NCBI GenBank assembly: GCA_965227305.1
Contig: OZ245740.1
Coordinates: 9,449,524 to 9,513,523 of the forward strand
DNA from: Limisphaerales bacterium
GTDB taxonomy: Bacteria > Verrucomicrobiota > Verrucomicrobiia > Limisphaerales > AAA164-E04
Direction of reading: 5' to 3'
DNA: 64,000 bases
The notes beneath the pieces were generated by a model, which saw nothing but the letters and a program-made list of their open reading frames with translations, had not been told where the DNA came from and ran no database searches. Below, piece after piece: positions 584 through 35,661 of the stretch (positions are counted from its first letter, which is position 1; each line of letters begins with the position of its first letter). The position numbers were made by a program, and so were the translations under genes.

Positions 584-624
584 AAAAAGAAATCCCGCGT
601 CTGCGAGGATCGCAAACGCGGGAT
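584..624 (-). terminator. Rho-independent terminator downstream of the DUF4126 gene
   Basis: Arm atcccgcgt (592-600) pairs with acgcgggat (616-624). An inner tgcga/tcgca pairing extends the stem around a 3-nt loop. On the minus strand the hairpin is followed by ttcttttt (the plus-strand A-tract at 584-591). It lies 28 nt after the stop at 652. Confidence 0.75.
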
Positions 625-651: not shown

Positions 652-1251
652 CTATTGGGTGCCGACAACCGGACTAGGAGCCGCCAGCGAGCGACGATCG
701 ATGAAGAGTTTCTTGATCGCGAAGGCCAGCAAGCCCATCACGACGAACAGCGTGAGCGCGGGAACCATGATAGCAAGAGCGGATACCGTGGCCGCGCCAC
801 CCATCTCCATGGTGGAGAGGAATGGGTTACCGAGTCCACCCGTGGTGAGGGAGGACCCCCCTCGCAGGATGGCGGTGGCCGCGTGGAAGAATCCGGCAGA
901 GCTGCCCCCGGCAATCACCGCGAAGGTCCATTGGACGAAGGGACTCACGTCACTCACCATAGAGGCGGATAAAACTGTCCCTGCCACGACGGCGGCCGGA
1001 GCTGCGGCGGCATCGAGCATGTTGTCGACCCAGGGAACGTAGTAGCCCACCACTTCACAACCCACTGCGACCGTGAAGGCAATCATCGCGGGCGGGGTGG
1101 CCATCCATTGAAATCCATCGGCCAATTCGAGATGACCCGAATAGGCGGCGAGACTGACGATCAGAGGCGGGACAAACACGCGGAACCCACAGGCCGCGCT
1201 GAGACCGAGTCCTATCATCATTCCGAGAAGGGCTTCTGCAGTTATTTCCAT
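652..1251 (-). CDS. DUF4126-like integral membrane protein
   Basis: Track ORF 652..1257. That start is a TTG; an ATG lies two codons downstream at 1251. The protein is Gly/Ala-rich and polytopic (GLGLSAACGFRVFVPPLIVSLAAY..., AGGSSAGFFHAATAILRGGSSLTTGGLGNP), which resembles the DUF4126 family from memory. Confidence 0.7.
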   Translation of the reverse strand: MEITAEALLGMMIGLGLSAACGFRVFVPPLIVSLAAYSGHLELADGFQWMATPPAMIAFTVAVGCEVVGYYVPWVDNMLDAAAAPAAVVAGTVLSASMVSDVSPFVQWTFAVIAGGSSAGFFHAATAILRGGSSLTTGGLGNPFLSTMEMGGAATVSALAIMVPALTLFVVMGLLAFAIKKLFIDRRSLAAPSPVVGTQ

Positions 1252-1429
1252 AATCAAATCCTCGCTGAAAGGTTAGTTCTGTTCTCAATACCCAACTGGA
1301 TCGGGGAAAGTTTCATTTCGAATCCAGTTTTTTCGTGGGGCCTATCCTACCGAATTCGGCGGGATTGGGAGTATACAAAAAGCGGTGAGCGTTTGGAATG
1401 GGGCTCGTTTTGCCTCAAAACGGCTGTTC

Positions 1430-3844
1430 TTAGGGGAAACTACGCCGAAATGTGAGGAAAAGCCCGTGCGCGGTGTAGTCGTTCGCCCCTTGCGTGAAGG
1501 GCTCACGGTAGTCAAAAAAGCCGTATTGGGCGCGGATTTGACTGTTTTGACTCAGGTTTTTGGTGAATCCGGTGACGATGCCATGCCGATCATAATCCAT
1601 CCCGAGAGGGAGATTGAGAGGCGTATCCGATTGAGCAAAGTCCGCTTTGGAGAAGGAATAGGTGGTTTCCCACGTAAGCGACTTGCTCACAATGTAGTTG
1701 GCAGAGCCGAGCACGGTATAGAGCTGGCCTTCGTAGGGAACGACGATCGCACCATCCGTCACGCCGCTCGTGGTTCGGAGATCGCTGACGGTGGCCGTGG
1801 CCGAGAGGTAGAGTCGATTCCAGGGCTGGGCGGTCGTGGAGATGGTGTAGTGGTGGGCGTCGAAATTGCCGGAATAGATGTCATTCGCGGGAAAGACCGT
1901 TCCAAAGACATCGACGGAATCGGTTGCGGTGCGGAAATCCGTGGCGGTGAGCCGATACGCCAGGCTGGTCCGAACGCGACGATGGGGTTTGAGGGTGAGC
2001 TTGACCTGAAAATCGTCCGTATCCGTATCGCGGGATCGGATGAAGGCGGAAAAACCATTTCCCGGTGGGGCGAAGGTGCCGAGGTCCGTGTCGAGATCGT
2101 GATTGTAGTCGTTTTGGCGAAAACGGCGGCGGTACCAACTCTCAATGGAAGCCCAACTCAAGGGTGAGTAGGTGATCCCGGTTCGGTATTCCTTGTGATC
2201 CATGGTGGCGTCGGTGTCGCGCATGAAATCCGTGGCATCCGGGAATCCATCGTCAATGAATTGATTCTCTCGTTGGCCGATATCCCGTTGCTGGAACTTG
2301 GCATCTAGATACAGGACGGTGTGGCGGAGTTTATCATAGCGCAGGCCAAAGTTTTCCTCGGTGGTGATTTGGTCGATGTTGGAACCGATCCCGGTTGGGG
2401 AGCCGAAGACGAAGATATCGCCATCGCCGCTCTGGCTGGTCCAATCGTTCTGCACGCCGGCGAATAGACTCAGGCCATCCCAGGGGCCGAAGAGCGAATT
2501 GACATTGATGACGTGGGAGTCGCGATCGAGGACGATGCCTTGGCTGGTATCGCCTTGGAACGGGGCGGCGGCCAGGTTGGTGGGGAGGAAGGTTTCGAGG
2601 TTGAAGCCGGCATCGGCGCTGAGATCGGAGTAAAGGTAACCGGCGGAGACGAGCCACCAGGGTTTGAGCTGTTTTTCAGCTCGGATGGTGTTGGAGCCTT
2701 GGAATTGATCGTAGTCTTCTTCGACGCGAGTCGCAGAGGCGGGAGCCGCGTCACCAGCGGTGATGAAGTCGGCGGTAGAACGTCGGGTTTCTAGATTGGT
2801 AAAGGTGCCGCGAAACGATTCATCCAATTGCCATCCCTTCCAGGTGTGCGAGACATCGAGCTTGATGATGTGGGTCTCTTCATCGATGGCTTTGGCGCTG
2901 GGATAGATCCCGCGACCCGTGGCGCCGGGCGGGGTGGCCGGAAAGACTGGGCCCCAGTGGAGCATGGATTTTTCGCCGTCACGGAACTGGTGTTCGTAGC
3001 CGAGCACGATCCGGGGCCAGTTTGGTAGCGTGAGGCCCACGTCGATCCAGGCACGGCCCGTGTCGAGGTAGAGATCGCGATCCAAAGAGATGGCGCCTTG
3101 GCCGACGTCGCTCGCGAAGCCGCCGGTGTTGTCATAGAAGCGTCGGAACTGATCGTAGCCCAACTGAATAAAGCCCAAATCGGGGCGGGTGAAGGTCACG
3201 TCAAATTCGTGATCCTCGGTTTCAAAGATCGAGCGCCCGTTGAGTTCCACTCGCGTGCCGTCTTTCATGCGGTCCTTGAGCGTGAAGCGGGAAATCCCAC
3301 CACTGAATCCGTCTGCTTGCCAATAATGTTCCCGGAAACGGGCTTCGTCTCCGGAGACGGAGATGTAATTGAGAGTCGGTTCGAAAACGTAGGAAAGGGA
3401 GGGTTCTTCGGCTGCGGCATCCCATTCGGCGCCTTGATCGATCCAGGCGCGGAGAACGGCGATTTGATCCGTATTCAAGCGTTCGGCTTTGCCGATGGGT
3501 GGCATTTCCAGATCTTCTTCGAGGTGGGCCACGAAATGGATCAGCGGGCTGTTGGCGCTATCGCCAATCAGAATGTTCTCCCCATAGTCGCCGCCAGCCA
3601 GCGCGGTGTCGCGGTGTCTCAGGTTGAATCCGCCTTTGGGGCGTTCATCGCCATGGCATTGGAAACAGTGGCCTTCGAAAATTGGAAGCACGTCTTGGGA
3701 GTACACCACCGTGCGATCCACGGGCGGTGGGAGTTGCGAGATATCAACATCCTGGGCGCTGAGAGCGTGGTTGAGCGCGAGTGCCCCCAAGAGCCAAGTG
3801 GCGTGGGATCGGAGCTGCGGCGAGCGTCGAGTCGTCATAGCCAT
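1430..3844 (-). CDS. Exported protein: N-terminal Planctomycete-type cytochrome c domain (PSCyt1-like, CFQCH) fused to a ~670-aa putative outer-membrane beta-barrel
   Basis: 804-aa ORF. Signal peptide MAMTTRRSPQLRSHATWLLGALALNHALSAQD. Heme motif VLPIFEGHCFQCHGDERPKGGFNLR...MPP...LRAWIDQGAEW. The rest is aromatic-rich with alternating hydrophobic strands (LVSAGYLYSDLSADAGFNLETF, FQVKLTLKPHRRVRTSLAYRL, YTVLGSANYIVSKSLTWETTYSF) and ends with the terminal strand GLFLTFRRSFP. Confidence 0.75.
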   Translation of the reverse strand: MAMTTRRSPQLRSHATWLLGALALNHALSAQDVDISQLPPPVDRTVVYSQDVLPIFEGHCFQCHGDERPKGGFNLRHRDTALAGGDYGENILIGDSANSPLIHFVAHLEEDLEMPPIGKAERLNTDQIAVLRAWIDQGAEWDAAAEEPSLSYVFEPTLNYISVSGDEARFREHYWQADGFSGGISRFTLKDRMKDGTRVELNGRSIFETEDHEFDVTFTRPDLGFIQLGYDQFRRFYDNTGGFASDVGQGAISLDRDLYLDTGRAWIDVGLTLPNWPRIVLGYEHQFRDGEKSMLHWGPVFPATPPGATGRGIYPSAKAIDEETHIIKLDVSHTWKGWQLDESFRGTFTNLETRRSTADFITAGDAAPASATRVEEDYDQFQGSNTIRAEKQLKPWWLVSAGYLYSDLSADAGFNLETFLPTNLAAAPFQGDTSQGIVLDRDSHVINVNSLFGPWDGLSLFAGVQNDWTSQSGDGDIFVFGSPTGIGSNIDQITTEENFGLRYDKLRHTVLYLDAKFQQRDIGQRENQFIDDGFPDATDFMRDTDATMDHKEYRTGITYSPLSWASIESWYRRRFRQNDYNHDLDTDLGTFAPPGNGFSAFIRSRDTDTDDFQVKLTLKPHRRVRTSLAYRLTATDFRTATDSVDVFGTVFPANDIYSGNFDAHHYTISTTAQPWNRLYLSATATVSDLRTTSGVTDGAIVVPYEGQLYTVLGSANYIVSKSLTWETTYSFSKADFAQSDTPLNLPLGMDYDRHGIVTGFTKNLSQNSQIRAQYGFFDYREPFTQGANDYTAHGLFLTFRRSFP

Positions 3845-3868
3845 TCCGGTTTCTCTACGGTTTGGGGG

Positions 3869-4783
3869 TTAATACAGGAGTCGCGGGTTGACCATGGAAC
3901 CATGCACCGCGGTATGGCAACCGGCCGTCCAGCAGGTGCCCATTTGGAGAAACGCGCTGTGATCGACCTTGCCAACCAGGACTTGGGTGGGATCGAACTG
4001 CATTTGCGAGTGACAACGCAGGCAGAGATGCGCGTCGCGTTGGACGAGCATCTTGTCATTCATGGAGCCGTGGGGTTGGTGACAGGTCGTGCACCCGTCT
4101 CGCATGCCTTCATGGACGAAGACGAAGTTTCGGGTTTGTTCCCGGTGACAGGCGGCGCATTGTTGGTCCTGGCGGGCGAGTCCGAGTCCACCGGGTTGTT
4201 TGAAGATTTCGCGGCCGTGGGGGTCGTGGCAATCCACGCAATTCATTTGGCCTTCGAGCACGGGGTGATGTTGGGGCAGGCGGAACTCGGCATGCTTTTC
4301 TTGGTGACACTCCATGCAGGGTTGGGGATCGCGGCCGGGGTTGTGAATGAAGACACCTTTGCCGCCGCCGGCCGTGATGTGTTTGCTGCCGGGACCGTGG
4401 CACGATTCGCAACCGCTGACGCCGTGGTGACTGGTGTCGTCCTTAAAGAATCGGGCGTGAACACTGGCCGGGAAGGCGCGGGTGATTTCACCGTGGCAAT
4501 CCGCGCATTTCTGGTTCCCGACGAACTCGGCGCCCTCGATTTGCGGCGGGGTGACGAGGGATTGACTCACCGAGGTGCACGAGGATGGTAAGGCGAGGAG
4601 GCAAAGTGCGACACCGAGAGTCAGTAGCGAAAAGGGGAGCCATTGACCGAGGCGGCGAGTGAATCCGGCTTGGGGTGTGGAAGGAGGGGGTTCCATAAGT
4701 GTCAACTTCCAGTGTACGAGGTAGTTAGGGATCTCGTGGGACGGTGAGAGAGTAGGGGGGAGTCGCAGATTGTCAAGGGACAT
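3869..4783 (-). CDS. Multiheme (about 8 heme) c-type cytochrome, exported
   Basis: Seven CXXCH motifs (CADCH, CESCH, CMECH, CVDCH, CAACH, CTTCH, CLRCH) plus one CX4CH (CWTAGCH) in about 260 mature residues. Hydrophobic signal LPFSLLTLGVALCLLALPSSC. The start is uncertain: an alternative ATG lies at 4696. Only 24 nt separate it from the downstream barrel gene. Confidence 0.85.
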   Translation of the reverse strand: MSLDNLRLPPTLSPSHEIPNYLVHWKLTLMEPPPSTPQAGFTRRLGQWLPFSLLTLGVALCLLALPSSCTSVSQSLVTPPQIEGAEFVGNQKCADCHGEITRAFPASVHARFFKDDTSHHGVSGCESCHGPGSKHITAGGGKGVFIHNPGRDPQPCMECHQEKHAEFRLPQHHPVLEGQMNCVDCHDPHGREIFKQPGGLGLARQDQQCAACHREQTRNFVFVHEGMRDGCTTCHQPHGSMNDKMLVQRDAHLCLRCHSQMQFDPTQVLVGKVDHSAFLQMGTCWTAGCHTAVHGSMVNPRLLY

Positions 4784-9488: not shown

Positions 9489-11783
9489 ATGAAAGAATTA
9501 TCCTATCTTCGCAAGACGTTCGTGCGAGTCCCGTTGGCTTGGAGTGGGCTCCTGCTGGCAAGCTTCTTCGCATTCCCATTCTCGACGCAGAGCGAGGAAC
9601 CGGTTCAAGGCTATCTGCATATTTGGGGCTCGGCTTGGTTGAATAGTCTGCCCACGGGGAGAGGTGGGCCACTCCCGGAGGAACTCGGACCCGCGCTTGA
9701 CTACGCCAGCGGGCGCTATCATCAAACCGCGTTGTTAGCCGACGGCCGGGTCGTGACCTGGGGGATTGCGGGACCGGATGAGTTTCGGCCGGCGGATGGC
9801 GAACCGAAGTTTGTCTCGGTCGAGGCTTCCTGGAAAGCGGGCTATGCCGTTCGGGATGACGGGAGTGTGATCGACTGGCCCCTCCGCAATGAGCCGGACT
9901 ATCGAGCCCCGGAAGGCGGGGCGCCTATCCAACAGATCGCGTCGGGCTCGACCCATTTCCTCGCTCGCCGGGCCGATGGAACTATGACCGCTTGGGGCGG
10001 CTTCGATGATCCGGTTCTCACGCTTCCGGCGCTAGCGAATGTGAAACAGATCGCCCTTGGGCGGTCGCACGGGATCGCGCTGTTGGAGGACGGGACGCTT
10101 CGTGCGTGGGGGAGTTCCGAGTTTGGGCAGACCGCGATTCCGGAAGACTTGGGCGGCGTTGTGGCCGTTGCGGCCGGATTCGCGCACTCAGTAGTACTGA
10201 CAGCGGATGGTAGGCTTCATGTCTTTGGCAAACCGGATGCGATTGAAGGCATTCCGACCGACCAACCGGACTATGTGGATATCGCAGCGTTCGGTCATCA
10301 TACTATGGGGTTGACGCGGACGGGCCGGGTGGAGGTCTGGAACGCGCCGCCGGAGTTGACACCAACGATTCCTCCGGATGTGCGAGTGGCCGCCATTTTT
10401 GCCGGGGACTCCCATATTGCGGTACTGGCGGATAAGCCCTTTCCGATGATTAGCCAGCCCTTGGAACCGCTCACCGTCCACCCCGGGCATACCGCTACTC
10501 TGACCGTTGCCGCAACCTATCCCGAGGCGGTGAGCTATCAATGGTACCGGGACGGCGAGATCCTTCCCGGCGCGACCGGACGCCGCTTGGAGCTGGTCGA
10601 TGTCTCCACTACGGATGCGGGAACATACACGGTGGAGCTGCGTGATGCTCAGGGGAGCGTAAACGCAACGTCAACGACTCTAAGCGTTGTCTCTTCGGGG
10701 GAGTCGCCCTCGCAGGGCGAGCTCCGAGCCTGGGGCTATCTATTGCCGGACTCCGTGCGGGGCGAGGACGATATTGTGACCGTGGCGGCAGGACTCTATC
10801 ACGCTCTGTTGCTCCACGCTGATGGATCGGTGACGGGAATTGGCGATAACGAGCATGGGCAGATTGAGGTGCCGGCGGATCTCCCTCCCATCGTTGATAT
10901 CGCCGCCGGTTATCATCATTCCCTGGCGCTCACGGAAACCGGCCGGGTGGTTGCGTGGGGGGACAATGATGCCGGGAAAGCTACGCCACCCGATGGGCTG
11001 GCCAATGTCGTTTCGATTGCGGCTGGTTCCCGGCATTCCGTTGCCGCGCTGAAGGATGGTTCTGTGGTCGCGTGGGGGGATCGGCGAGCAGGGTTGATCG
11101 ATGTCCCCGCCTCGCTTAGGGATGTGGTTCAAGTGACGGCCGGGGATCTCCACACCCTGGCACTCCGGCGTGACGGAACGGTTGTGGCTTGGGGCCGAAA
11201 CTTGGCGGGACAAACCGACGTGCCTTCCGGGTTGGAGGATGTGATCGGTATTGCTGCCGGGGCGCGGGTCTCTTTGGCTCTCACGGCGAATGGCCGGATC
11301 GTTGCTTGGGGGGAGACGCCGATGACAGAATCGCTGCACGCCGAGAGCCTGAATGGGGTTACGGCCATTTCTGCGATCGAGGATCAGATTGCTTTTGTTC
11401 GGGCTGATGGGCAGGTAGGAGGTATTCCTGCGTTTCCGGATTTCTCGAATCGAGCCGATGCCTCTGTGCTGTCGCTGGCGGCTGGGGTCGGGCGGGTATA
11501 CTTCGTCGAAGGTGCCGTCTTCGAGTCCTCCCTGAGACTCTCTTTAGCGGGAGTGAGCGATACGGATCGTTCCACTCTCCGGCTCGTGATTACTGGGGCT
11601 GATGGCGTCCCGCTTTCCCCGGCGGACCATCCGAACCTGGTCATCGAATCGAGGTCTGTTTTTCACCCTGAAAGCGCTTGGCACAGGATTGTGCCGGCTC
11701 TGGAGCCGGGGACGGATTCTATTCGGATCGAAATCGGTCGTTCTCAAGAATTTTATCGAGCTCGTCTTGAGTTGGTTCGATAG
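9489..11783 (+). CDS. Exported RCC1-repeat (two beta-propeller blocks) protein with a central Ig-like domain
   Basis: RCC1-like blades recur (GRVVTWG, GTLRAWGSSEFGQTAIP, GRVVAWGDNDAGKATPP, GSVVAWGDRRAGLIDVP, GTVVAWGRNLAGQTDVP). The Ig I-set-like segment is YQWYRDGEILPGATGRRLELVDVSTTDAGTYTVEL. The start is taken at the ATG at 9489 (MKELSYLRKTF..., followed by a hydrophobic signal). The track start at 9315 reads through repeat copy b. Confidence 0.85.
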   Translation: MKELSYLRKTFVRVPLAWSGLLLASFFAFPFSTQSEEPVQGYLHIWGSAWLNSLPTGRGGPLPEELGPALDYASGRYHQTALLADGRVVTWGIAGPDEFRPADGEPKFVSVEASWKAGYAVRDDGSVIDWPLRNEPDYRAPEGGAPIQQIASGSTHFLARRADGTMTAWGGFDDPVLTLPALANVKQIALGRSHGIALLEDGTLRAWGSSEFGQTAIPEDLGGVVAVAAGFAHSVVLTADGRLHVFGKPDAIEGIPTDQPDYVDIAAFGHHTMGLTRTGRVEVWNAPPELTPTIPPDVRVAAIFAGDSHIAVLADKPFPMISQPLEPLTVHPGHTATLTVAATYPEAVSYQWYRDGEILPGATGRRLELVDVSTTDAGTYTVELRDAQGSVNATSTTLSVVSSGESPSQGELRAWGYLLPDSVRGEDDIVTVAAGLYHALLLHADGSVTGIGDNEHGQIEVPADLPPIVDIAAGYHHSLALTETGRVVAWGDNDAGKATPPDGLANVVSIAAGSRHSVAALKDGSVVAWGDRRAGLIDVPASLRDVVQVTAGDLHTLALRRDGTVVAWGRNLAGQTDVPSGLEDVIGIAAGARVSLALTANGRIVAWGETPMTESLHAESLNGVTAISAIEDQIAFVRADGQVGGIPAFPDFSNRADASVLSLAAGVGRVYFVEGAVFESSLRLSLAGVSDTDRSTLRLVITGADGVPLSPADHPNLVIESRSVFHPESAWHRIVPALEPGTDSIRIEIGRSQEFYRARLELVR

Positions 11784-11811
11784 GGCCGGGGCCTAGGGCC
11801 GTTTTTCCCCT

Positions 11812-11921
11812 GGTAGGGCGAGCGTACTCGCGAGCCGTTCCTACCCGGAGCGTCCATCTGAGCCGATGGCCTTTGCGGACCCTGCTTTTGCCCAACGGCT
11901 CGCGGGTACGCTCGCCCTACC
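11812..11921. repeat. Palindromic intergenic repeat, copy c
   Basis: Same orientation and length as copy b. By hand alignment I count 5 differences in 110 nt. The arms at 11812-11839 and 11894-11921 have one mismatch. Confidence 0.9.
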
Positions 11922-12041
11922 AGGGGAATTCGTTACTCCTGTCTCGGTTGTACTTTAATCGTTCGCTTCGCATGAAATGGGCTTGAAATGTAGGGGGCTT
12001 CAGGTCGATTCTTCGGAACGAAAGAACGAGAATTCAAGACG

Positions 12042-12890
12042 ATGGTAAGGCAAACTATTATTCCGGTGCTAGGGGCTTTGGGGCTTGTTGCGATGGGTAA
12101 CCTCGATGCTGAAGAGATTACGTTTCGCTTTACCGGGAGTGTAAATCAGGTGGATGTGCCGCTCGGGAATACGGTTCAGATCGGCGACGCTTGCACGGTC
12201 GACGTCATTTTTGATCCCGACGCAGGCCCGGTGTTTGCCGGGCTTTCGCGGTATCCCGTCGTGCGTTCTTCCTTCACGATTCACGCCGCCAGCGGTGACT
12301 TAACGGCAAGTGTGGAGGCAGGGCCGCAGGAATGGATTATTATCAATGATCGCATGGGGGCTTTCCAAAGCGATCAATGGTTGTGGAGCGCGCCCTTGGG
12401 GGATGGGTTTGGTGGCAAACTAGCGAGTGCCCAATTCTTCTCAATCGGTGAGCACGAAATCCGCGACTACAACATTCACCTTACGGATAACAACGCCTCC
12501 GCCTTTTCCAACGATGCCTTACCGTTGACGCTGGATCTCAGCGCGTTTTCTTTGCGTCAGGGCTTTTCTCAGTTTGGCCAAGCTGGCCACGATGTTCGGT
12601 TCAACGTCGAAGCGCTAGAGGTTCTCGGGGGCGGAGCGGCGCCTCCGGATGGGGGTGGGGATGTGGCTCGGCCGCAGATTCAATCCTATGCTCTCCTGGA
12701 GGATGGGCGCTTTGAGATCCAATGGGACAGCGAAGCGGGCGCGACGTATGAGGCGCGTTGGTCGCTTGATTTGGAGACCTGGACGGTTGCGGGTGAGGCT
12801 ACTGCGGATGGCGAGCTCACCGCTTATACATTTCCCGCTCCGGACTCGGCTGCGGCCGCGCTGTTTTTTGACGTGCGGGTCCGCGAATAG
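12042..12890 (+). CDS. Hypothetical exported protein with a C-terminal beta-sandwich-like tail
   Basis: 282-aa ORF with an ATG start and signal-like N-terminus MVRQTIIPVLGALGLVAMGNLDA. I recognise no family. The tail is FEIQWDSEAGATYEARWSLDLETWTVAG...LFFDVRVRE. Confidence 0.6.
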   Translation: MVRQTIIPVLGALGLVAMGNLDAEEITFRFTGSVNQVDVPLGNTVQIGDACTVDVIFDPDAGPVFAGLSRYPVVRSSFTIHAASGDLTASVEAGPQEWIIINDRMGAFQSDQWLWSAPLGDGFGGKLASAQFFSIGEHEIRDYNIHLTDNNASAFSNDALPLTLDLSAFSLRQGFSQFGQAGHDVRFNVEALEVLGGGAAPPDGGGDVARPQIQSYALLEDGRFEIQWDSEAGATYEARWSLDLETWTVAGEATADGELTAYTFPAPDSAAAALFFDVRVRE

Positions 12891-12897
12891 CGCAGGA

Positions 12898-14790
12898 CTA
12901 AAGGTTGGGCTTCTTCCGGGATTCCCGTCGGGAGTTTGCTTCGATCGTCGAGCGAGGACGCGGAATGGCGGCTTCGCCGAGGTCGTGATAGCGATGGCTA
13001 GAGAGGGCTTTCAATCGTTCCTCAGTCACGGATTGGCCGTCGGCGGGCGTGCTCATGACTCGTGGAGTGATGAGTAGCACGAGCTCGGTTTTCGTGTTCT
13101 CTCGAACATCCCGCCGGAAGATCGAACCCAACACGGGAAGATCGCCGAGTAATGGGACTTTTTGCCGGTTTTCACTTTGTCGCTGCCGAATCAAACCACC
13201 GATCGCGATGGTGAGGTTGTTCGTGGCGATGATGGTGCCTTGGATCCGAGCCGTGTTCACGGTATCGACATTGAAGCCTTGAACGTTTCCGGCACCCGCT
13301 GCGACCGGAATGATGGCGGCTCCGGTGGCCACGGAGGAGGAATCTTGAGTGATGGTCAGGGTGACCGTTTTGTCTTCATTGATTCGCGGCAGGATTTCGA
13401 CCGTGTTGCCGATATCCCGTACCTCGGTTTGCGGCTCGACAGTCGCTGTGGTGGCTCCGTTGCCGGGGGTGACGAGGCTCGTATTTACTCCGGTGGTGAG
13501 GACGCGTTCTTCCCCGATGAAGATCCGGGCCGTTTGGTTGTTGGCTGCCAGGATCATCGGGGTGGCGAGTTCTTGGATGCGGTTCTCCCCAGCCATGAGT
13601 TGGATGCGGGCACGGACGCGGTCGTTGAGGAATTGATACACGAAGCGGTTGTCTTCGAGTGGGAAGCGGCCTAGAGCGGTGACGTTTCGGGCGACCTGAG
13701 CGCTGCCGGGACTTAACGGGTTGAGAATCTGGGTGCTAGGTGTGCCCAGGGTGTCCGGGCCGTTGACGAGCTCGTAGTCGAACGCGGATCGGAACGTGTC
13801 TCCGAGGTTGAGTTCGAGGATCTTCATTTCCAACAACACTTGGGGAATGGGGCGGTCGACTTCCAGGATCAAGGTTTCGATATCGAGCATGGCTTCGGGA
13901 TCACTCGTCCGGGCGATCAGCAAATTGTGCTGTCGGTTGACGGTGATGTAGATATCGGGTTCCCGACCGGTGACCTGTTGGAGGGACGCGCTGTCGACCG
14001 TGGCGTTGGCGTTGCTGTCCTGAGTGAGGGTTTCCAGGTGAGCGATTTGATTGGAGGTCAACGTGGGCGTGCGTGGCCCGCCGATCGGTGCGGAGGAGAG
14101 TCCCCCGCTGTTGGCGGTTCCGATGGCACGCGACAGACCCCCGCCAGCCCCGCCTCCGAATAGGGCACCGCGATTGGGCTGGCCCGATCCGGTTGCGGTA
14201 TTCCCATTGCCGGCCGTGGGTGTGTTCGTGCCGGTATTCCCTGCAGTGGCTCCGGCGCCACCGGTTGCGGCAGTGGTGCCCCCTTGGTCAAAGCCCAAGG
14301 AGAGGACGACGCGCTGCCCATAGAGATCGGCAATGGCCGTGGCGGCGCTCAGGACATTCTCATGCTGGAGAGTAAAGACTCGGGTGCGTTCTTCTTTGTA
14401 CACCACGATATCCCGCTCGTATTCCTCGGTGGTCATGATCCGGTAAATATCGGCATCCGGATCTTTGCGATACCAGAGTCCGGAGATGCGGCACATGACT
14501 TCGATGGCTTTCGCCGTCGTGATGTTTTGAAGATAGAGCGAGACGGTTCGTTGTCCTGCAGACTCCGTTGCCACGATGTTGGCACCGGAGAGTTCGGCGA
14601 GGAGTTGGGCCGCATCGACGATGGTGCTCTGCTTGAGCTGGAACTTGTCGAGGGCGTGCTGGCTTCCGCGATAGGCGATCGGGGTAGTCGTGGGGGCACT
14701 GGGTTGAGCTAGGAGCGGGGATGAATGGAGACCCCAGGCAAGACCCGAGAGGATTGCGAATGTGCCGAGGCGGGGCTGACGACGTTTCAT
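12898..14790 (-). CDS. Secretin (GspD/PilQ family outer-membrane channel)
   Basis: C-terminal secretin signature NRQKVPLLGDLPVLGSIFRRDVRENTKTELVLLITPRVM. N-domain-like repeats are present. It has a signal peptide. It is the last gene of the operon. Confidence 0.9.
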   Translation of the reverse strand: MKRRQPRLGTFAILSGLAWGLHSSPLLAQPSAPTTTPIAYRGSQHALDKFQLKQSTIVDAAQLLAELSGANIVATESAGQRTVSLYLQNITTAKAIEVMCRISGLWYRKDPDADIYRIMTTEEYERDIVVYKEERTRVFTLQHENVLSAATAIADLYGQRVVLSLGFDQGGTTAATGGAGATAGNTGTNTPTAGNGNTATGSGQPNRGALFGGGAGGGLSRAIGTANSGGLSSAPIGGPRTPTLTSNQIAHLETLTQDSNANATVDSASLQQVTGREPDIYITVNRQHNLLIARTSDPEAMLDIETLILEVDRPIPQVLLEMKILELNLGDTFRSAFDYELVNGPDTLGTPSTQILNPLSPGSAQVARNVTALGRFPLEDNRFVYQFLNDRVRARIQLMAGENRIQELATPMILAANNQTARIFIGEERVLTTGVNTSLVTPGNGATTATVEPQTEVRDIGNTVEILPRINEDKTVTLTITQDSSSVATGAAIIPVAAGAGNVQGFNVDTVNTARIQGTIIATNNLTIAIGGLIRQRQSENRQKVPLLGDLPVLGSIFRRDVRENTKTELVLLITPRVMSTPADGQSVTEERLKALSSHRYHDLGEAAIPRPRSTIEANSRRESRKKPNL

Positions 14791-14793
14791 GAT

Positions 14794-15270
14794 TTACCTC
14801 ACGATGATATAGCTTTCGTGTTCTCCGAATTCCACTTCCACGCTCTGCCTGTGGATCGCCATGATCTTGACGCTGGAGTTGTGGCCGTGGGTTTTGAGCG
14901 AGAGTGAATCGCCGACTTGTACGACGTGCACCGCTCCCTTGTCGACTTCCAGCAGGGCGAAGGAATTGCCCTCCTTGTCAATCACCGCACCGCGGAGGCG
15001 TAGGTTCATCGAGCCCGTGATGGCCGAGATGGTATTGGAGAGGGGATTGTTTTCGGAAACCTTGCGAATCATGGCGACGGTGTTCGCGAAGGGATCGTTG
15101 GTTTTCTTGATCCTAACGGGACCGGCATCGGTGATTTCTGTTTCGGGCGTGCTCACGGGCTCCGGGGCGTTGCTGGATTCCGAAACGGCCGTGGAATGGA
15201 AACCCGCCGGTAGGGTGATGAGCGCGAGACAAAGGGCGATTCGTTGAGTCAGGGAGTTTTTGAGTTTCAT
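14794..15270 (-). CDS. Small exported protein, PilP / GspC-HR-domain-like (putative secretin-interacting component)
   Basis: 158 aa. Signal peptide MKLKNSLTQRIALCLALITLPAGF. C-terminal beta-rich segment GAVIDKEGNSFALLEVDKGAVHVVQVGDSLS...VKIMAIHRQSVEVEF. It sits 3 nt upstream of the secretin gene. The family assignment rests on position and pattern only. Confidence 0.5.
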   Translation of the reverse strand: MKLKNSLTQRIALCLALITLPAGFHSTAVSESSNAPEPVSTPETEITDAGPVRIKKTNDPFANTVAMIRKVSENNPLSNTISAITGSMNLRLRGAVIDKEGNSFALLEVDKGAVHVVQVGDSLSLKTHGHNSSVKIMAIHRQSVEVEFGEHESYIIVR

Positions 15271-15290
15271 GGTTTTACTTGGGTGTTGGT

Positions 15291-16547
15291 TTAGCCTGAG
15301 GCGGCAATTTGGAAGACGGCTTTGAAGAAAGCGAAGTAGACAAAGCCGACCATGCCGCCGATGAAAAAGAGAATGGCGGGCTCAATGAGCACGGTCATTC
15401 TCTGGATTCGTGTTTGGAGTTCGCTTTCGTAAAAATTGCCCATTTGTTGGAGCGCGAGCGAGAGTTCGCCGGTCTGTTCTCCAACGGCGATCATTTGTTT
15501 CACCAATGGGGGGAAATCCTCCTGATTGAGGCTGTCGGAAAGGGAGCGGCCTTTCAGAATGTCGGACACGGACAGGGATAGGCCGTTGCGGTAGGCGGGG
15601 TTCCCGGTGGTGGCCGCCGTGACCTGCAGCGATTCGGTGACGGTGAGTCCACTCCCGAGAAGGAGGGAAAGCGTCTTGCCCATTTGGGCCATGGAGGACA
15701 CCTCAAGCACTTTGCCCACCACAGGAACTTGAGTGGCTCTGCGACTAAGAAAGAGGCGTCCGGCGGTGTTGCGCCAGACAAAACCGATCCCGATGAACCC
15801 GATGATGCCGAGGAGTAGAAGCCAGGGTCCGTATTGTTGGAGGAGGCCGGAGGTTTGCAACAACAGCTCCGTGGATGCCGGAAGTTCGATTTTCCGTTTG
15901 GCAAAGTATTCGGCAAATTTGGGAATCACCGTCCAGGTGAGGAACAGGACTACGGCAACGGCGGCAAAGATCACGATGGACGGATAGGTGAGGCTGGTGA
16001 GGAGCTTGGACTTGAGGCTGACCTTCATCTCCAGGTGCCGGGCGACGCGTTCCAGGACGTGGTCAAGCTCGCCGCTGGCTTCGCCCGTTTCAATGAGTCG
16101 AATTGCGGTATAAGGAAAAACGTTCCGCAGCTTGTTGAGACACTGAGAAAAGCGGGCTCCGCCCTGAATCCCTTCGATGACTTCCCCGATGTTTTTTTGG
16201 AGTCGGTGGTTCTTGCCTTGAAAGCGGCAGACTTCGAGGGACTGTAGGAGCGGGAGACCGGAGCGGAGCATCACGGCGAGTTGGCGGAAAAAGAAGATTT
16301 GCTCGTGCGCCGAGATGGGTTGGTACTTTTCGAGGAATCGCGCGATATACCCCTTCCGCGCTAGAGGCGTTCCGTTTGTGCCGCCCACGGAGAGCCCGGG
16401 TTGTGCGGTAGCGTTGGGGGCAATTTCCAAGACGTAGAGTGAATCCGACCGTAGTTTGGCGACGGCGTTGTGGATGGTAGGCGCATCGATACAACCGTCG
16501 AGGGTTTTGCCGGACTGATTGAGGGCTTGGTAGCGGAATTGAGCCAT
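15291..16547 (-). CDS. Type II secretion / type IV pilus platform protein (GspF/PilC family)
   Basis: 418 aa with a duplicated T2SSF-like architecture, three TM segments, and typical blocks FFRQLAVMLRSGLPLLQSLEV and LIETGEASGELDHVLERVA / VGEQTGELSLALQQMGNFY. Confidence 0.9.
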   Translation of the reverse strand: MAQFRYQALNQSGKTLDGCIDAPTIHNAVAKLRSDSLYVLEIAPNATAQPGLSVGGTNGTPLARKGYIARFLEKYQPISAHEQIFFFRQLAVMLRSGLPLLQSLEVCRFQGKNHRLQKNIGEVIEGIQGGARFSQCLNKLRNVFPYTAIRLIETGEASGELDHVLERVARHLEMKVSLKSKLLTSLTYPSIVIFAAVAVVLFLTWTVIPKFAEYFAKRKIELPASTELLLQTSGLLQQYGPWLLLLGIIGFIGIGFVWRNTAGRLFLSRRATQVPVVGKVLEVSSMAQMGKTLSLLLGSGLTVTESLQVTAATTGNPAYRNGLSLSVSDILKGRSLSDSLNQEDFPPLVKQMIAVGEQTGELSLALQQMGNFYESELQTRIQRMTVLIEPAILFFIGGMVGFVYFAFFKAVFQIAASG

Positions 16548-16559
16548 GGCACTGAGGGG

Positions 16560-18188
16560 TTATGAGGCGGCAACGCCTTTGATTTCTTCGATCGTGGTGA
16601 GCCCTTCGATGACCTTCTGACAACCATCCCGTTTGAGTTCGGTCATTCGGGAGGCGATGGCTCTTTCCCAACTCTCACGGCTCTGTTGGTCGGCGATCAG
16701 ACGCTGCAGTTCCTTGTCAATCCGGAGCACTTCAAAGACACCGACCCGACCTTGAAAACCGGTGCCCACGCATCGCGAGCAGCCTTGGGCGCTGGGGCCG
16801 AAGAGGCTGGCCTTGGGTGTGTCTAGGCCGAGGTAGTGCCGTTCGGCGTCCGTGGCGGGGCGCTCCACCTTGCACTCCGGACAGAGCCGTCGGACGAGTC
16901 GTTGCGCCACGACACAGGCTAGGGTTGAGGCGATGAGGTAAGACTGACAGCCGATGTCCATGAGGCGACTGACGGCTGACGGGGCGTCGTTGGTGTGGAG
17001 AGTTGAGAAAATCAGATGGCCGGTCATGGCGGCGCGTAGCGCGACTTCGGCGGTTTCTTGGTCCCGAATCTCACCCACCATCAGAACGTCCGGATCGTGT
17101 CGCAGCATCGATCGAAGCCCTTTGGCGAAAGTCATTTTTTCGCTCCGCGATACCGAGACCTGCGAGATGCCATCGATGTGAGATTCAATCGGGTCTTCAA
17201 GGGTCATGATGTTGACGTCAGGACGGCAAAGCGAGCGCAGGGCAGCGTAAAGGGTGGTGGATTTGCCACTTCCCGTAGGGCCTGTGATGAGGATCATTCC
17301 GTGGGGAAGGTCCAGGGCTTCCTGAAAGGTGGCGAGTGAGTCCGCCGGCATGCCGGTTTCTTTCAGCGAGAAGGCCTTGTTCTCGGTGGCCAAGACTCGA
17401 ATGGTGACTCGTTCGCCCCAGCGGGTGGCCAGGGTGGCGATGCGCAGGTCTACGGCGGTATCGGGCAAGCCGGGGATTTCGTAGCTGAAGCCGCCGTCTT
17501 GAGCCGAGCGTTGTTCGGCGATGTCCAGTCCAGCGAGAACCTTGATGCGAGAAACCAACCCTTGGGCTTGATCCGTGTCGATGTGGCAACGCAAGGGTTC
17601 GAGTCGGCCATCGACGCGGATGCGGGCGACGAGCCCGTTCTTCTGCGGGTCGAGGTGAATGTCCGAGGCGCGTCGCAAGTAAGCTTCTTTCATGATGCGA
17701 TCGAAGGCTTCGACCGGGGTAGGCGTCTCGAGGGGAACTTCTCGCGGATACAGTTCGGTTAGAATCTGGGAGGCGGCGGCTCGTAGGGCTTGAGGTTCCG
17801 CCAGGGCCAAGTCGGTTTCGAAACCGGTGCGGCGTTCGATCTCGGCGACCAAGAGGTGGTCGTCCGGACAACCCGAGGCGACCAAGAGCCTATTGCCTTC
17901 CCGTGAGACAGGAATCGCCGCGCCGCGTCGCATGACACTGACCGGGAATTCCCGCGCCAAGTCCGTGCTGGGTTGGACGCGGTGGTAGTCGATGAACGGT
18001 ATGCCTCGAACTTCCGCGGCCGCGCAGTAGACGGCTGAAGCTGGAAAACGACCCCGGGCGGTGATGAGATCGATCAGCTCGACCCGCGTTCGACGAGCCT
18101 GGCGTTTGAGTTCCTCGACTTCTTGGCCACTGAGCAGCGCTCGGTCGACGACCGCACTCGATAGTTGTTCCGGTGTCAGAGCTCTCAT
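16560..18188 (-). CDS. Assembly ATPase of the GspE/PilB family
   Basis: N-terminal T2SSE_N/MshEN-like domain. Walker A ILITGPTGSGKSTTLYAAL. Asp box LEDPIE. Walker B MVGEIRD. Tetracysteine CPECK...CSRCVGTGFQGRVGVFEV. Confidence 0.92.
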   Translation of the reverse strand: MRALTPEQLSSAVVDRALLSGQEVEELKRQARRTRVELIDLITARGRFPASAVYCAAAEVRGIPFIDYHRVQPSTDLAREFPVSVMRRGAAIPVSREGNRLLVASGCPDDHLLVAEIERRTGFETDLALAEPQALRAAASQILTELYPREVPLETPTPVEAFDRIMKEAYLRRASDIHLDPQKNGLVARIRVDGRLEPLRCHIDTDQAQGLVSRIKVLAGLDIAEQRSAQDGGFSYEIPGLPDTAVDLRIATLATRWGERVTIRVLATENKAFSLKETGMPADSLATFQEALDLPHGMILITGPTGSGKSTTLYAALRSLCRPDVNIMTLEDPIESHIDGISQVSVSRSEKMTFAKGLRSMLRHDPDVLMVGEIRDQETAEVALRAAMTGHLIFSTLHTNDAPSAVSRLMDIGCQSYLIASTLACVVAQRLVRRLCPECKVERPATDAERHYLGLDTPKASLFGPSAQGCSRCVGTGFQGRVGVFEVLRIDKELQRLIADQQSRESWERAIASRMTELKRDGCQKVIEGLTTIEEIKGVAAS

Positions 18189-19363
18189 GGTTGCATTTGA
18201 AGCGGTTCAGGATGGGAGGCGCCGGTTCCGACGGCGTCGGCGGATTCAAGCTCGGCTACTTCGAAGGCGTTCGACTCACCGGCTTGCTTCTCGCGAGCCC
18301 GTAAGAGATCGACCAACACGTTGGGATCTTTGGCGAGGCGGAGAGCTTCATCGAGGCTGATCGATTCGGCTTGAACGTGCTGAGCGAGGGATTGTTCCCG
18401 CGTCATCATGCCGTGTTGGGAGCCGGATTCCATCAAGGTATAGATTTGTTCCAAGCGTCCCGTGCGGATGTGGTTGCAGACCGCTTTGGTGCCCCAGAGG
18501 ATTTCGACCACGGGGACGCGGCTGTCTTCGGTGCGGGTCATGACCAAGCGTTGGGACACGACGGCCCGGAGGACCATGGAAAGCTGGTGGCGGATGGAGG
18601 TTTGCTCCGCGGCGCTGAATCCGCCCAGGATTCGGTTGATGGCGCCGACGGCGTCGGATGTATGTAAGGTGGAGTAAACCGCGTGGCCGGTCTCGGCGGC
18701 GGCGATGACGGTTCGCATGGTGTCCGGATCCCGCATTTCACCGACGAGGATGATATCGGGATCTTCCCGGAGCGCGTCTTTGATCCCGCGAGCGTAGGAG
18801 GGAACGTCCGTGTAGAGTTCTCTTTGGTGAATGAGGCTCTTGGCTTCGTCATGCACCTGCTCAATGGGATCTTCGATGGTGATAATGTGCTGAGGTTCCT
18901 TTTGGTTGACTCGATCCAGGATGGCATTGAGCGTGGTGGATTTTCCGCTGCCCGTCGGCCCGGTAATCAGCACGAGACCGTCGTGAAGGGTCGTGAGTTT
19001 GTCCAGTGACGCCGGGAGGCGGAGCGTTTCAAAGTTGGCGATCTCTTCGGCGATGCGTCGAATCGCCAAGGACAGCCGTTGGCGCTCGTGGTAGATGTTG
19101 AGTCGGAAGCGGGGGCCGATTTCCGAGCTATAGGCTAGGTCTACGGAATGTTCCGAGCGGAGGCACTCTTGTTGTGGCGGAGCGAGCAGACTCTCCGTGA
19201 GCGCGTGGAGCGCCGCCTCGGTCCAGGTGGCTTGTTTGGAGTGAATCAAACGTCCGTATTGCCGCAGGTAAATCGGCTTGCCGGCAGAAAGGTGGATATC
19301 CGAAGCTTCCAGGTTGACGGATTCTTGGAGGAGCGATTCGAACCGAGTGAGACAGGCATTCAT
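18185..19363 (-). CDS. pilT: PilT/PilU-family (retraction-type) hexameric ATPase
   Basis: DIHLSAGKPIYLRQYG, LVLITGPTGSGKSTTLNAILD, IITIEDPIE, ILVGEMRD, GHAVYSTLHT. It lacks the GspE N-domain and the Cys4 motif. Its stop overlaps the gspE/pilB-like ATG by 4 nt (ATGA). Confidence 0.85.
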   Translation of the reverse strand: MNACLTRFESLLQESVNLEASDIHLSAGKPIYLRQYGRLIHSKQATWTEAALHALTESLLAPPQQECLRSEHSVDLAYSSEIGPRFRLNIYHERQRLSLAIRRIAEEIANFETLRLPASLDKLTTLHDGLVLITGPTGSGKSTTLNAILDRVNQKEPQHIITIEDPIEQVHDEAKSLIHQRELYTDVPSYARGIKDALREDPDIILVGEMRDPDTMRTVIAAAETGHAVYSTLHTSDAVGAINRILGGFSAAEQTSIRHQLSMVLRAVVSQRLVMTRTEDSRVPVVEILWGTKAVCNHIRTGRLEQIYTLMESGSQHGMMTREQSLAQHVQAESISLDEALRLAKDPNVLVDLLRAREKQAGESNAFEVAELESADAVGTGASHPEPLQMQP

Positions 19364-35658: not shown

Positions 35659-35661
35659 TTC

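Follow-up and report, generated by a model that had tools for sequence, protein, structure and literature searches.

Diderm bacteria use porin-cytochrome conduits to pass electrons to and from minerals, humic matter and electrodes. To our knowledge, all conduits that have been characterised so far belong to Proteobacteria and Geobacter. In the MtrCAB complex of Shewanella (structure 6R2Q), the decaheme cytochrome MtrA lies inside the 26-strand barrel MtrB, and MtrC is located at the surface. The MtoAB and PioAB systems of Sideroxydans and Rhodopseudomonas palustris, respectively, are two-component MtrAB homologues for the oxidation of Fe(II), with MtoD and PioC as soluble carriers. In Cyc2, a monoheme cytochrome-porin fusion found in iron oxidisers, the heme follows directly after the signal peptide, and the barrel is predicted to be small with about 16 strands. 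Here, we describe a gene pair from a Limisphaerales bacterium that can be compared with all of these systems. The pair is located in a stretch of 64,000 nucleotides (nt) (assembly GCA_965227305.1, contig OZ245740.1, positions 9,449,524-9,513,523), hereafter called the window, and coordinates are given as window positions. Two minus-strand open reading frames (ORFs), 3869..4783 (304 amino acids, aa) and 1430..3844 (804 aa), share a reading frame and encode an octaheme cytochrome and a protein in which a monoheme Planctomycete cytochrome c domain (PSCyt1) is fused to a predicted outer-membrane beta-barrel. Judged by its identity and architecture, the pair is probably a two-component MtrAB-type outer-membrane electron conduit.

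Pairs of a porin and a multiheme cytochrome have been noticed in Verrucomicrobia before, as an earlier note on this stretch of DNA had mentioned. He and co-workers described verrucomicrobial gene clusters encoding a porin of more than 20 strands beside an eight-heme periplasmic cytochrome, and extracellular electron transfer was proposed (He et al. 2017, mSphere, PMC5615132). Several of these clusters contain an extracellular multiheme gene, and they were stated to lack homology to the systems of Shewanella and Geobacter (He et al. 2017). PSCyt domains are discussed elsewhere in the paper, none of them on a porin, and Pedosphaera parvula is not named as a carrier. The supplements contain no porin or heme entries, and the Opitutus and Udaeobacter genomes of that study are absent from our lists of the best 80 loci. 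In 2026, Limisphaera isolates were reported to respire ferric citrate and ferrihydrite, and one of their porins has a single N-terminal heme motif; the porins were called members of the OMR family and unrelated to MtrB (PMC13608581). Thus, the belief expressed in the earlier note that none of these pairs has been tested biochemically holds for the proteins, whereas Fe(III) reduction by Limisphaera carrying a heme-motif porin has been reported. A survey of the distribution of Mtr systems does not mention Verrucomicrobiota (mBio 2022), and FeGenie, applied to the genome of an enriched Pedosphaeraceae member in a study of an iron-fed reactor, flagged no iron genes (PMC7914226). Our literature search returned no paper joining "Planctomycete cytochrome" with a porin and a multiheme protein.

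Among solved structures, the best match of the cytochrome is chain A of 6R2Q (E=3.5e-23), which we take to be MtrA, the depositor label shown for this chain being wrong. The NCBIfam models with the highest scores are NF041028 (GSU2203 decaheme; 159 bits, E=2e-46, cut-off 325), the sole Geobacter-related match of the protein, and TIGR03508 (DmsE decaheme; 138.1 bits, E=3.4e-40). The Pfam matches are Paired_CXXCH, c7 and c3-type models, and the NrfB models are much weaker (E about 1e-5). The assignment to the MtrA class in the earlier note is therefore upheld, and a grouping with periplasmic shuttles of the NrfB/c3 type, which the note had named as the outcome that would speak against it, was not found. 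In the numbering of the 304-aa ORF, CXXCH motifs start at residues 93, 125, 156, 182, 209, 231 and 254, followed by CWTAGCH at residue 284. This count of seven CXXCH and one CX4CH, in place of the ten CXXCH sites of the TIGR03508 family, recurs in 52 of 54 relatives; the last motif is CX4CH in these 52 and CXXCH in the other two. The CX4CH motif aligns with the final CXXCH of MtrA (CLNCH). The six C-terminal heme motifs, CX4CH included, align with the last six of MtrA and the first two with its first two, so that the cytochrome resembles an MtrA from which one internal di-heme unit is missing. Besides the eight His residues of the heme motifs, eight further His residues are invariant in an alignment of 36 sequences, which fits bis-His ligation of all eight hemes.

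The earlier note had counted the heme motifs correctly in what it regarded as an exported protein of about 300 aa, and both the length and the plain export have to be revised. The homologues comprise 261-275 aa and their alignment starts at Met30, and a TTGACA sequence falls within the opening codons of the long ORF; the true start is therefore probably position 4696, which gives 275 aa rather than 304. The hydrophobic signal segment is followed by a conserved lipobox Cys (residue 40 when counted from Met30), and the cytochrome is therefore probably a lipoprotein, with the first heme near the membrane. S39 and C40 are conserved in at least 90% of the 36 aligned sequences (alignment A2). A lipobox-like x-x-[S/A/G]-C is present in 53 of the 54 homologues encoded at the loci, at a median of 24 residues ahead of the first heme Cys. 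MtrA is no lipoprotein, and members of its family are soluble periplasmic proteins processed by signal peptidase I; the predicted lipid anchor thus departs from the family. As a separate observation, the C-terminal residue of the cytochrome (3869..3880) is aromatic, either Tyr or Phe, in 53 of 54 relatives and may be a contact or assembly signal.

The second protein was modelled with AlphaFold2 (AF2) using 41 homologues. The model has a mean predicted local distance difference test score (pLDDT) of 86.7 and a predicted template modelling score (pTM) of 0.76, and it consists of a helical N-terminal domain (about residues 38-141) and 26 long strands over residues 150-803. In a Foldseek search of the PDB, MtrB (6r2q_B) came first (E=6e-16; TM-score normalised to the target, 0.70), and all subsequent hits are 22-strand TonB-dependent receptors with TM-scores of 0.35-0.47. 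The giant beta-barrel read from the sequence in the earlier note is thus borne out by the model, which is neither a propeller nor a solenoid, and the modelled barrel shares with MtrB the 26 strands, MtrB being its nearest solved fold, as well as the position of its gene beside that of an MtrA-type multiheme cytochrome, here at a distance of 24 nt. Both the ORF calls and the sequence itself agree with the two minus-strand genes and the 24-nt gap that had been noted. At the sequence level, the tie between the barrel and MtrB is thin. It is carried, together with the fold comparison, by the Pfam hidden Markov model (HMM) of MtrB/PioB, PF11854, which matches a minority of members: two of 41 fused and five of 39 non-fused relatives, the latter being barrels without PSCyt1. 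For instance, scores of 28 and 31 bits put the relatives P0110 and P0116, respectively, above the gathering score of 23. The HMM check suggested in the earlier note was therefore positive for a few relatives and negative for the window protein. In view of the fold and the gene neighbourhood, we argue against the published opinion that these porins are unrelated to MtrB.

In the model, long loops follow the odd-numbered strands and turns of 2-5 residues follow the even-numbered strands. With the usual topology of outer-membrane proteins, this pattern places the N-terminal PSCyt1 domain in the periplasm. It was also observed that the first extracellular loop, after strand 1 (3310..3350), carries the near-invariant motif GDE.[KR]FREH.W, in which G165, F170, R171 and E172 are invariant and which may be a contact or assembly signal. 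A strict scan for this motif recovered 15 genomes, too narrow a set for a census, and revealed non-fused pairs in bins of Desulfobacterota and Omnitrophota.

The fusion distinguishes the window protein from classical MtrB and OmbB barrels, and the earlier note was right in this respect as well as about the signal peptide and the CFQCH domain. PF07635 matches residues 60-116 with 53.4 bits (cut-off 22), and nearly all of the 542 homologues of the protein have about 770-850 aa and contain PF07635. The single CFQCH motif starts at residue 60, and all of 41 sequences have C60, C63, H64, M114, P115 and P116. In Pseudomonas cytochrome c551, Met-Pro-Pro is the motif that supplies the Met ligand. The CXXCH motif and the invariant Met-Pro-Pro together lead to a prediction of His/Met ligation and thereby of a high potential, as in a small class-I cytochrome c. 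The PSCyt1 profile is weakly similar to the C-terminal domain of the hydrazine synthase alpha subunit, to PccH and to FoxE, and the weak alignment to the iron oxidase FoxE covers the Met-Pro-Pro motif. The idea that PSCyt1 compensates for the missing hemes of the cytochrome was rejected, as the non-fused barrels pair with the same octaheme protein.

The pairing itself is strictly conserved, which answers the question of synteny raised in the earlier note. In a first scan, the family alignment was compared with genomes; of the best 80 loci, 54 have a full-length barrel gene and room upstream. The octaheme gene lies directly upstream of the barrel gene in all 54, and the five loci lacking it begin less than 200 nt from a contig end. 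At none of these 59 loci did the surrounding 6 kb contain a further ORF with at least three CXXCH motifs. An exhaustive search with the barrel part alone (phmmer) reached 784 cluster representatives at a cut-off of E<=1e-3, of which 240 remained at E<=1e-30, and among the best 150 were 59 full-length fused and 37 full-length non-fused proteins. In the non-fused barrels, the signal peptide leads straight into the barrel and there is no CXXCH motif. A second scan, which was seeded with non-fused members, yielded 77 loci, 47 non-fused (type A) and 30 fused to PSCyt1 (type B, as in the window). Octaheme and barrel genes are adjacent in 74 of the 77 (45/47 non-fused and 29/30 fused). A further multiheme gene is found near 33 of the 47 non-fused barrels and near none of the 30 fused ones, and a cupredoxin gene shows the opposite distribution (0/47 and 17/30).

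The extra gene of type A loci usually encodes a protein of 800-950 aa with nine CXXCH motifs and lies directly upstream of the octaheme gene (loci L101-L145; for example, L102 1202..7028). The nonaheme protein matches PF22113, the model of MtrC/MtrF domains II/IV, with 43 and 53 bits against a cut-off of 30. With such a gene upstream of octaheme and barrel, type A is by its gene content a distant MtrC-MtrA-MtrB system in the canonical mtrCAB order. By the same comparison, type B is an MtrAB-only derivative to which a periplasmic heme domain and, in roughly half of the genomes, a cupredoxin were added. Matched by their description, the clusters of He et al. (2017) probably fit type A better than type B. 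The hosts of type A are mainly Verrucomicrobiia from peat, bog and groundwater, and also bins of Desulfobacterota, Lentisphaerales and Planctomycetota. Type B is carried by many genomes from soil, lakes, wastewater and the sea, including surface-ocean contigs of the Tara Oceans metagenomes and at least one cultured strain. Seven records with the locus (L001, L002, L011, L018, L026, L029 and L128) are titled Akkermansia muciniphila, Bifidobacterium/Bifidobacteriaceae or Pedobacter and look like binning or auto-naming errors; taxon counts from record titles are therefore unreliable. In bins called 'Desulfohalobiaceae' (L091 4037..6076, L096 1883..2437, L139 and L141), a monoheme gene of the cytochrome P460 family follows the non-fused barrel gene, and its identity as P460 disposed of the idea that it encodes a free PSCyt1. 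In L091, a multicopper oxidase exported by the twin-arginine translocation (Tat) pathway is encoded after the P460 gene, and additional cytochromes with seven to eight hemes are encoded near the 'Desulfohalobiaceae' non-fused loci.

For 38 loci with at least 1.5 kb on both sides, the neighbours were counted. A secreted cupredoxin with a Big_7 immunoglobulin (Ig) domain (PF00127, 30.7 bits) is encoded in 20 of them, an extracytoplasmic function (ECF) sigma factor together with an anti-sigma gene in 21, a divergent leuS, which is also present in the window, in 16, and a SCO1/SenC-CusF protein in six. SCO1/CusF neighbours were recorded at seven loci. In Pedosphaera parvula Ellin514 (L100 2745..13400, ABOX02000023.1), nine co-directional genes end with a type B pair and the cupredoxin: COX2 with a cytochrome c domain, COX1/COX3, CtaG, a small ORF, Rieske, cytochrome b/c, the octaheme cytochrome, the PSCyt1 barrel and the cupredoxin-Big_7 protein. 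P. parvula is a cultured aerobe. The rus operon of Acidithiobacillus ferrooxidans has the order cyc2-cyc1-cox genes-rusticyanin. The P. parvula cluster resembles this operon in combining, on a single strand, the genes of a heme-copper oxidase and a cupredoxin with those of an outer-membrane cytochrome-porin module. However, the components are non-homologous save for the oxidase and the cupredoxin fold, and the arrangement occurs in one genome and is absent from the window.

Compared with MtrCAB, the window pair has in common a cytochrome homologous to MtrA, a modelled 26-strand barrel closest to MtrB and a cytochrome gene that precedes the barrel gene. It differs in having eight instead of ten hemes, a CX4CH as the last motif, a predicted lipoprotein as cytochrome, the PSCyt1 fusion and no MtrC-like gene. 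With MtoAB and PioAB, it shares the two components, the lack of a surface cytochrome and an association with putative high-potential carriers, namely the fused PSCyt1 and, in about half of the loci, the cupredoxin. Unlike in these systems, a carrier-like heme is fused to the barrel, and the cytochrome is an octaheme rather than a decaheme protein and is predicted to be lipid-anchored. Type B would be a distinct, widespread and Verrucomicrobia-specific variant of the known MtrAB conduit and no new kind of system, and its hallmarks are the PSCyt1 fusion, the predicted lipoprotein octaheme and the cupredoxin in place of the surface multiheme partner.

MtrA homology, the barrel fold and its strand number, the fusion, the lipobox, ligand conservation, synteny and the split into two architectures were computed; for insertion of the cytochrome, topology, electron path and direction, 6R2Q served as the analogue. 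By this analogy, the octaheme cytochrome would be threaded through the lumen of the 26-strand barrel and form a heme wire. The N-terminal lipid anchor, about 24 residues before heme 1, would hold the wire by its periplasmic end to the inner leaflet of the outer membrane, and PSCyt1 at the periplasmic mouth of the barrel would link heme 1 to periplasmic carriers. No MtrC-like surface cytochrome would belong to type B, and the terminal CX4CH heme would trade electrons directly with soluble or colloidal extracellular species such as Fe chelates and humic quinones. Alternatively, the partner of this heme could be the secreted cupredoxin-Ig protein.

Several observations weigh against the pair being such a conduit or against the uptake of electrons by it. 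The insertion of the cytochrome into the barrel is drawn from the analogy with 6R2Q, and an AF2 model of the cytochrome by itself, built with the 36-sequence alignment, is unusable (mean pLDDT 47, pTM 0.24). A lipid-anchored cytochrome could also be exposed at the surface, in the opposite orientation. The window proteins score below the curated family cut-offs, which sets them apart from MtrCAB: the cytochrome does not reach the 192.2 bits of TIGR03508, and PF11854 gave no match to the window barrel at E<=1 (cut-off 23 bits). Moreover, when profiles of the fused family (A1), of the non-fused family (A3) and of P0110 were compared with the PDB sequences, none matched 6r2q_B. The His/Met ligation and the high potential of PSCyt1 are predictions. 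The Fisher tests of the two-architecture split (p=6e-11 for the presence of a further multiheme gene and p=2e-9 for that of a cupredoxin) ignore phylogenetic relatedness. Genes for a cupredoxin, an oxidase, a quinol oxidoreductase or SCO1/CusF are not found beside the pair in the window, and linkage to oxidase and bc genes occurs in P. parvula alone among about 135 loci. Finally, Limisphaera isolates with a heme-motif porin reduce Fe(III), which favours outward flow in at least some hosts (PMC13608581).

The direction of electron flow overall leans inward. For the MtrAB-type conduit proposed here, extracellular Fe(II) or reduced humics would then feed electrons to high-potential carriers and an oxidase, like in MtoAB and PioAB, and we hold this tentatively, at somewhat short of an even chance. 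The lean derives from the loss of the MtrC-like partner, the His/Met heme placed before bis-His hemes, the cupredoxin and SCO1/CusF neighbours, the linkage to oxidase and bc genes in P. parvula and the carriers from oxic habitats. The same conduit could run outward, with electrons passing from the quinol pool via PSCyt1 and the octaheme protein to extracellular Fe(III), Mn(IV) or humic quinones, a serious alternative that we consider on the doubtful side. It would serve either anaerobic respiration, as proposed by He et al. (2017), or an assimilatory reduction of ferric iron for iron uptake in oxic, iron-poor water. Limisphaera, which grows on ferric citrate and ferrihydrite, holds porin-associated multiheme cytochromes in its genomes (PMC13608581), although the presence of several cytochrome loci means that iron reduction cannot be assigned to one of them. 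The bc complex encoded just upstream in P. parvula could equally supply outgoing electrons, and the sister type A loci have kept the MtrC-like cytochrome and the mtrCAB order. The closest homologues, MtrA and MtrB, run outward in Shewanella. However, outgoing electrons would enter from the periplasm through the predicted His/Met heme, which would act as an energetic trap ahead of the eight bis-His hemes, and the fused loci lack the MtrC-like partner (0/30 and 0/59) and have cupredoxin and SCO1/CusF instead. Aerobes such as P. parvula and the surface-ocean Tara contigs among the carriers also fit outward flow poorly.

Building on inward flow, type B could be an aerobic device for the uptake of extracellular electrons, which consists of an MtrAB-derived wire that lost its MtrC-like cytochrome and gained a high-potential His/Met entry heme, and which passes electrons from Fe(II), reduced humics or comparable extracellular donors via the cupredoxin to a caa3-type oxidase. 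The last part of this route is suggested by the gene order in P. parvula, and the proposal in this complete form is rather unlikely.

A further reading, which we consider improbable, takes the 804-aa protein as a self-contained cytochrome-porin like Cyc2, which would oxidise or reduce an extracellular substrate on its own, and the octaheme protein as a mere periplasmic relay outside the barrel. As in Cyc2, an N-terminal c-type heme domain and an outer-membrane barrel are joined in a single polypeptide, the weak similarity of the PSCyt1 profile to FoxE and PccH would suit such a role, and the lipid anchor could just tether the relay beneath the outer membrane. Unlike Cyc2 with its 16 or so strands, however, the modelled barrel has 26 and is MtrB-like, its wide lumen needs a filler, and it goes with an MtrA homologue as obligate partner. 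The heme domain forms a folded unit of about 110 aa of the PSCyt1 family, which is specific to the Planctomycetes-Verrucomicrobia-Chlamydiae (PVC) group, and its predicted periplasmic location would put it out of reach of an external substrate. Moreover, non-fused members without a heme of their own keep the same octaheme partner, which ties the conserved role of the barrel to the cytochrome and not to the PSCyt1 heme. Least of all do we expect the barrel to be a transport or uptake channel, either a large porin or akin to TonB-dependent receptors, with accessory or sensory hemes and without electron transfer across the membrane: receptors are numerous among the Foldseek hits (E down to 4.5e-12), the Limisphaera porins were placed in the OMR family (PMC13608581) and an ECF sigma/anti-sigma pair as in some receptor systems is a frequent neighbour, but neither Plug (PF07715) nor TonB_dep_Rec (PF00593) matches the 804-aa protein, the model has 26 strands rather than the 22 of receptors and a far higher TM-score to MtrB, and the strict coupling to an MtrA homologue in more than 130 loci would be left unexplained.

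The features of the locus are listed in Table 1.

Table 1 Features of the putative conduit locus on the window (residue numbers refer to the 804-aa protein unless stated otherwise)
Feature	Position	Strand	Basis and remarks
Octaheme c-type cytochrome, MtrA homologue, predicted lipoprotein, 275 aa from Met30	3869..4696	-	Longest ORF reaches 4783
Predicted signal peptide and lipobox of the cytochrome (…LLALPSSC)	4577..4696	-	Lipid-modified Cys is residue 69 (long ORF) or 40 (from Met30)
Heme-binding region, first CADCH to terminal CWTAGCH	3914..4507	-	Motif positions
Intergenic spacer, 24 nt	3845..3868	-	Sequence read; no terminator-like site between cytochrome and barrel genes
804-aa outer-membrane protein: signal peptide, PSCyt1 monoheme domain, predicted 26-strand barrel	1430..3844	-	ORF, AF2 model
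Signal peptide, residues 1-30 (…NHALSA/QD)	3755..3844	-	Translation; residues 1-31 of low pLDDT; cleavage site predicted
PSCyt1 (Planctomycete cytochrome c) monoheme domain, residues about 38-141	3422..3733	-	CFQCH at 3653..3667; Met114-Pro-Pro starts at 3505
Predicted 26-strand beta-barrel, MtrB-like, residues 150-803	1436..3397	-	DSSP on the model, Foldseek
DUF4126 inner-membrane protein	652..1257	-	PF13548, E=1e-46
Terminator-like hairpin	592..624	-	15-bp stem with 9 GC pairs, T-rich tail; 28 nt past the DUF4126 stop codon; consensus scan alone

The short spacer without a terminator-like site is consistent with co-transcription of the cytochrome and barrel genes. The DUF4126 gene is present downstream on the same strand as had been noted, and the hairpin directly after it is the sole strong terminator-like site 3' of the three genes; cytochrome, barrel and DUF4126 therefore probably form one transcription unit, with DUF4126 as the last gene. 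A promoter scan of the window found nothing above chance, and neither Rfam families nor tRNAs were detected in the window. The earlier note had asked whether DUF4126 stays adjacent in related genomes. This is the case in the closest clade, in which the barrels are at least 57% identical and the gene follows the barrel gene (L081/L082 with 72%, L083 with 60% and L090 with 57% identity), but in none of 59 more distant loci does it occur within 6 kb.

Several other genes of the window were also recorded. On the plus strand, 33115..37179 encodes a canonical PSCyt1-PSCyt2-PSD1 protein of 847 aa and, after it, a DUF1501 protein of 505 aa; the 64-kb window thus holds PSCyt1 in two architectures that are unrelated. 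Over 103 residues, the fused PSCyt1 domain is 41% identical to that of the PSCyt1-PSCyt2-PSD1 protein (33115..35658). About 8 kb from the pair lies a minus-strand cluster resembling type II secretion or type IV pilus systems (12898..19363; secretin, GspF, GspE/MshEN and a PilT-like ATPase), and in the 60% identical relative L083 a cluster with secretin and T2SSE directly follows DUF4126 (11417..18397). Two other minus-strand genes encode single-heme proteins, one a glucose/sorbosone dehydrogenase of the pyrroloquinoline quinone (PQQ) type with an N-terminal cbb3-type cytochrome c domain (60180..62564) and the other a HEAT-repeat protein of 1266 aa with one CXXCH motif (27811..31611).

The comparison reveals two forms of Mtr homologues in Verrucomicrobia, which are distant yet can be recognised as such and which earlier papers had regarded as unrelated to Mtr. 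Since many environmental genomes and at least one cultured strain carry the type B pair, its function is testable. The outcome would alter the way in which iron and humic redox cycling is ascribed to a phylum that is among the most abundant in soil and freshwater. Moreover, a confirmed conduit would give one architecture of the enigmatic PSCyt1 domain its first function. If electron uptake is indeed the role of type B, the subdivision-3 Verrucomicrobia, which are abundant in soils, lakes and the surface ocean and count as "heterotrophic", would live as lithoheterotrophs and tap extracellular reductants by a pathway that received no FeGenie flag in the one enriched Pedosphaeraceae genome.

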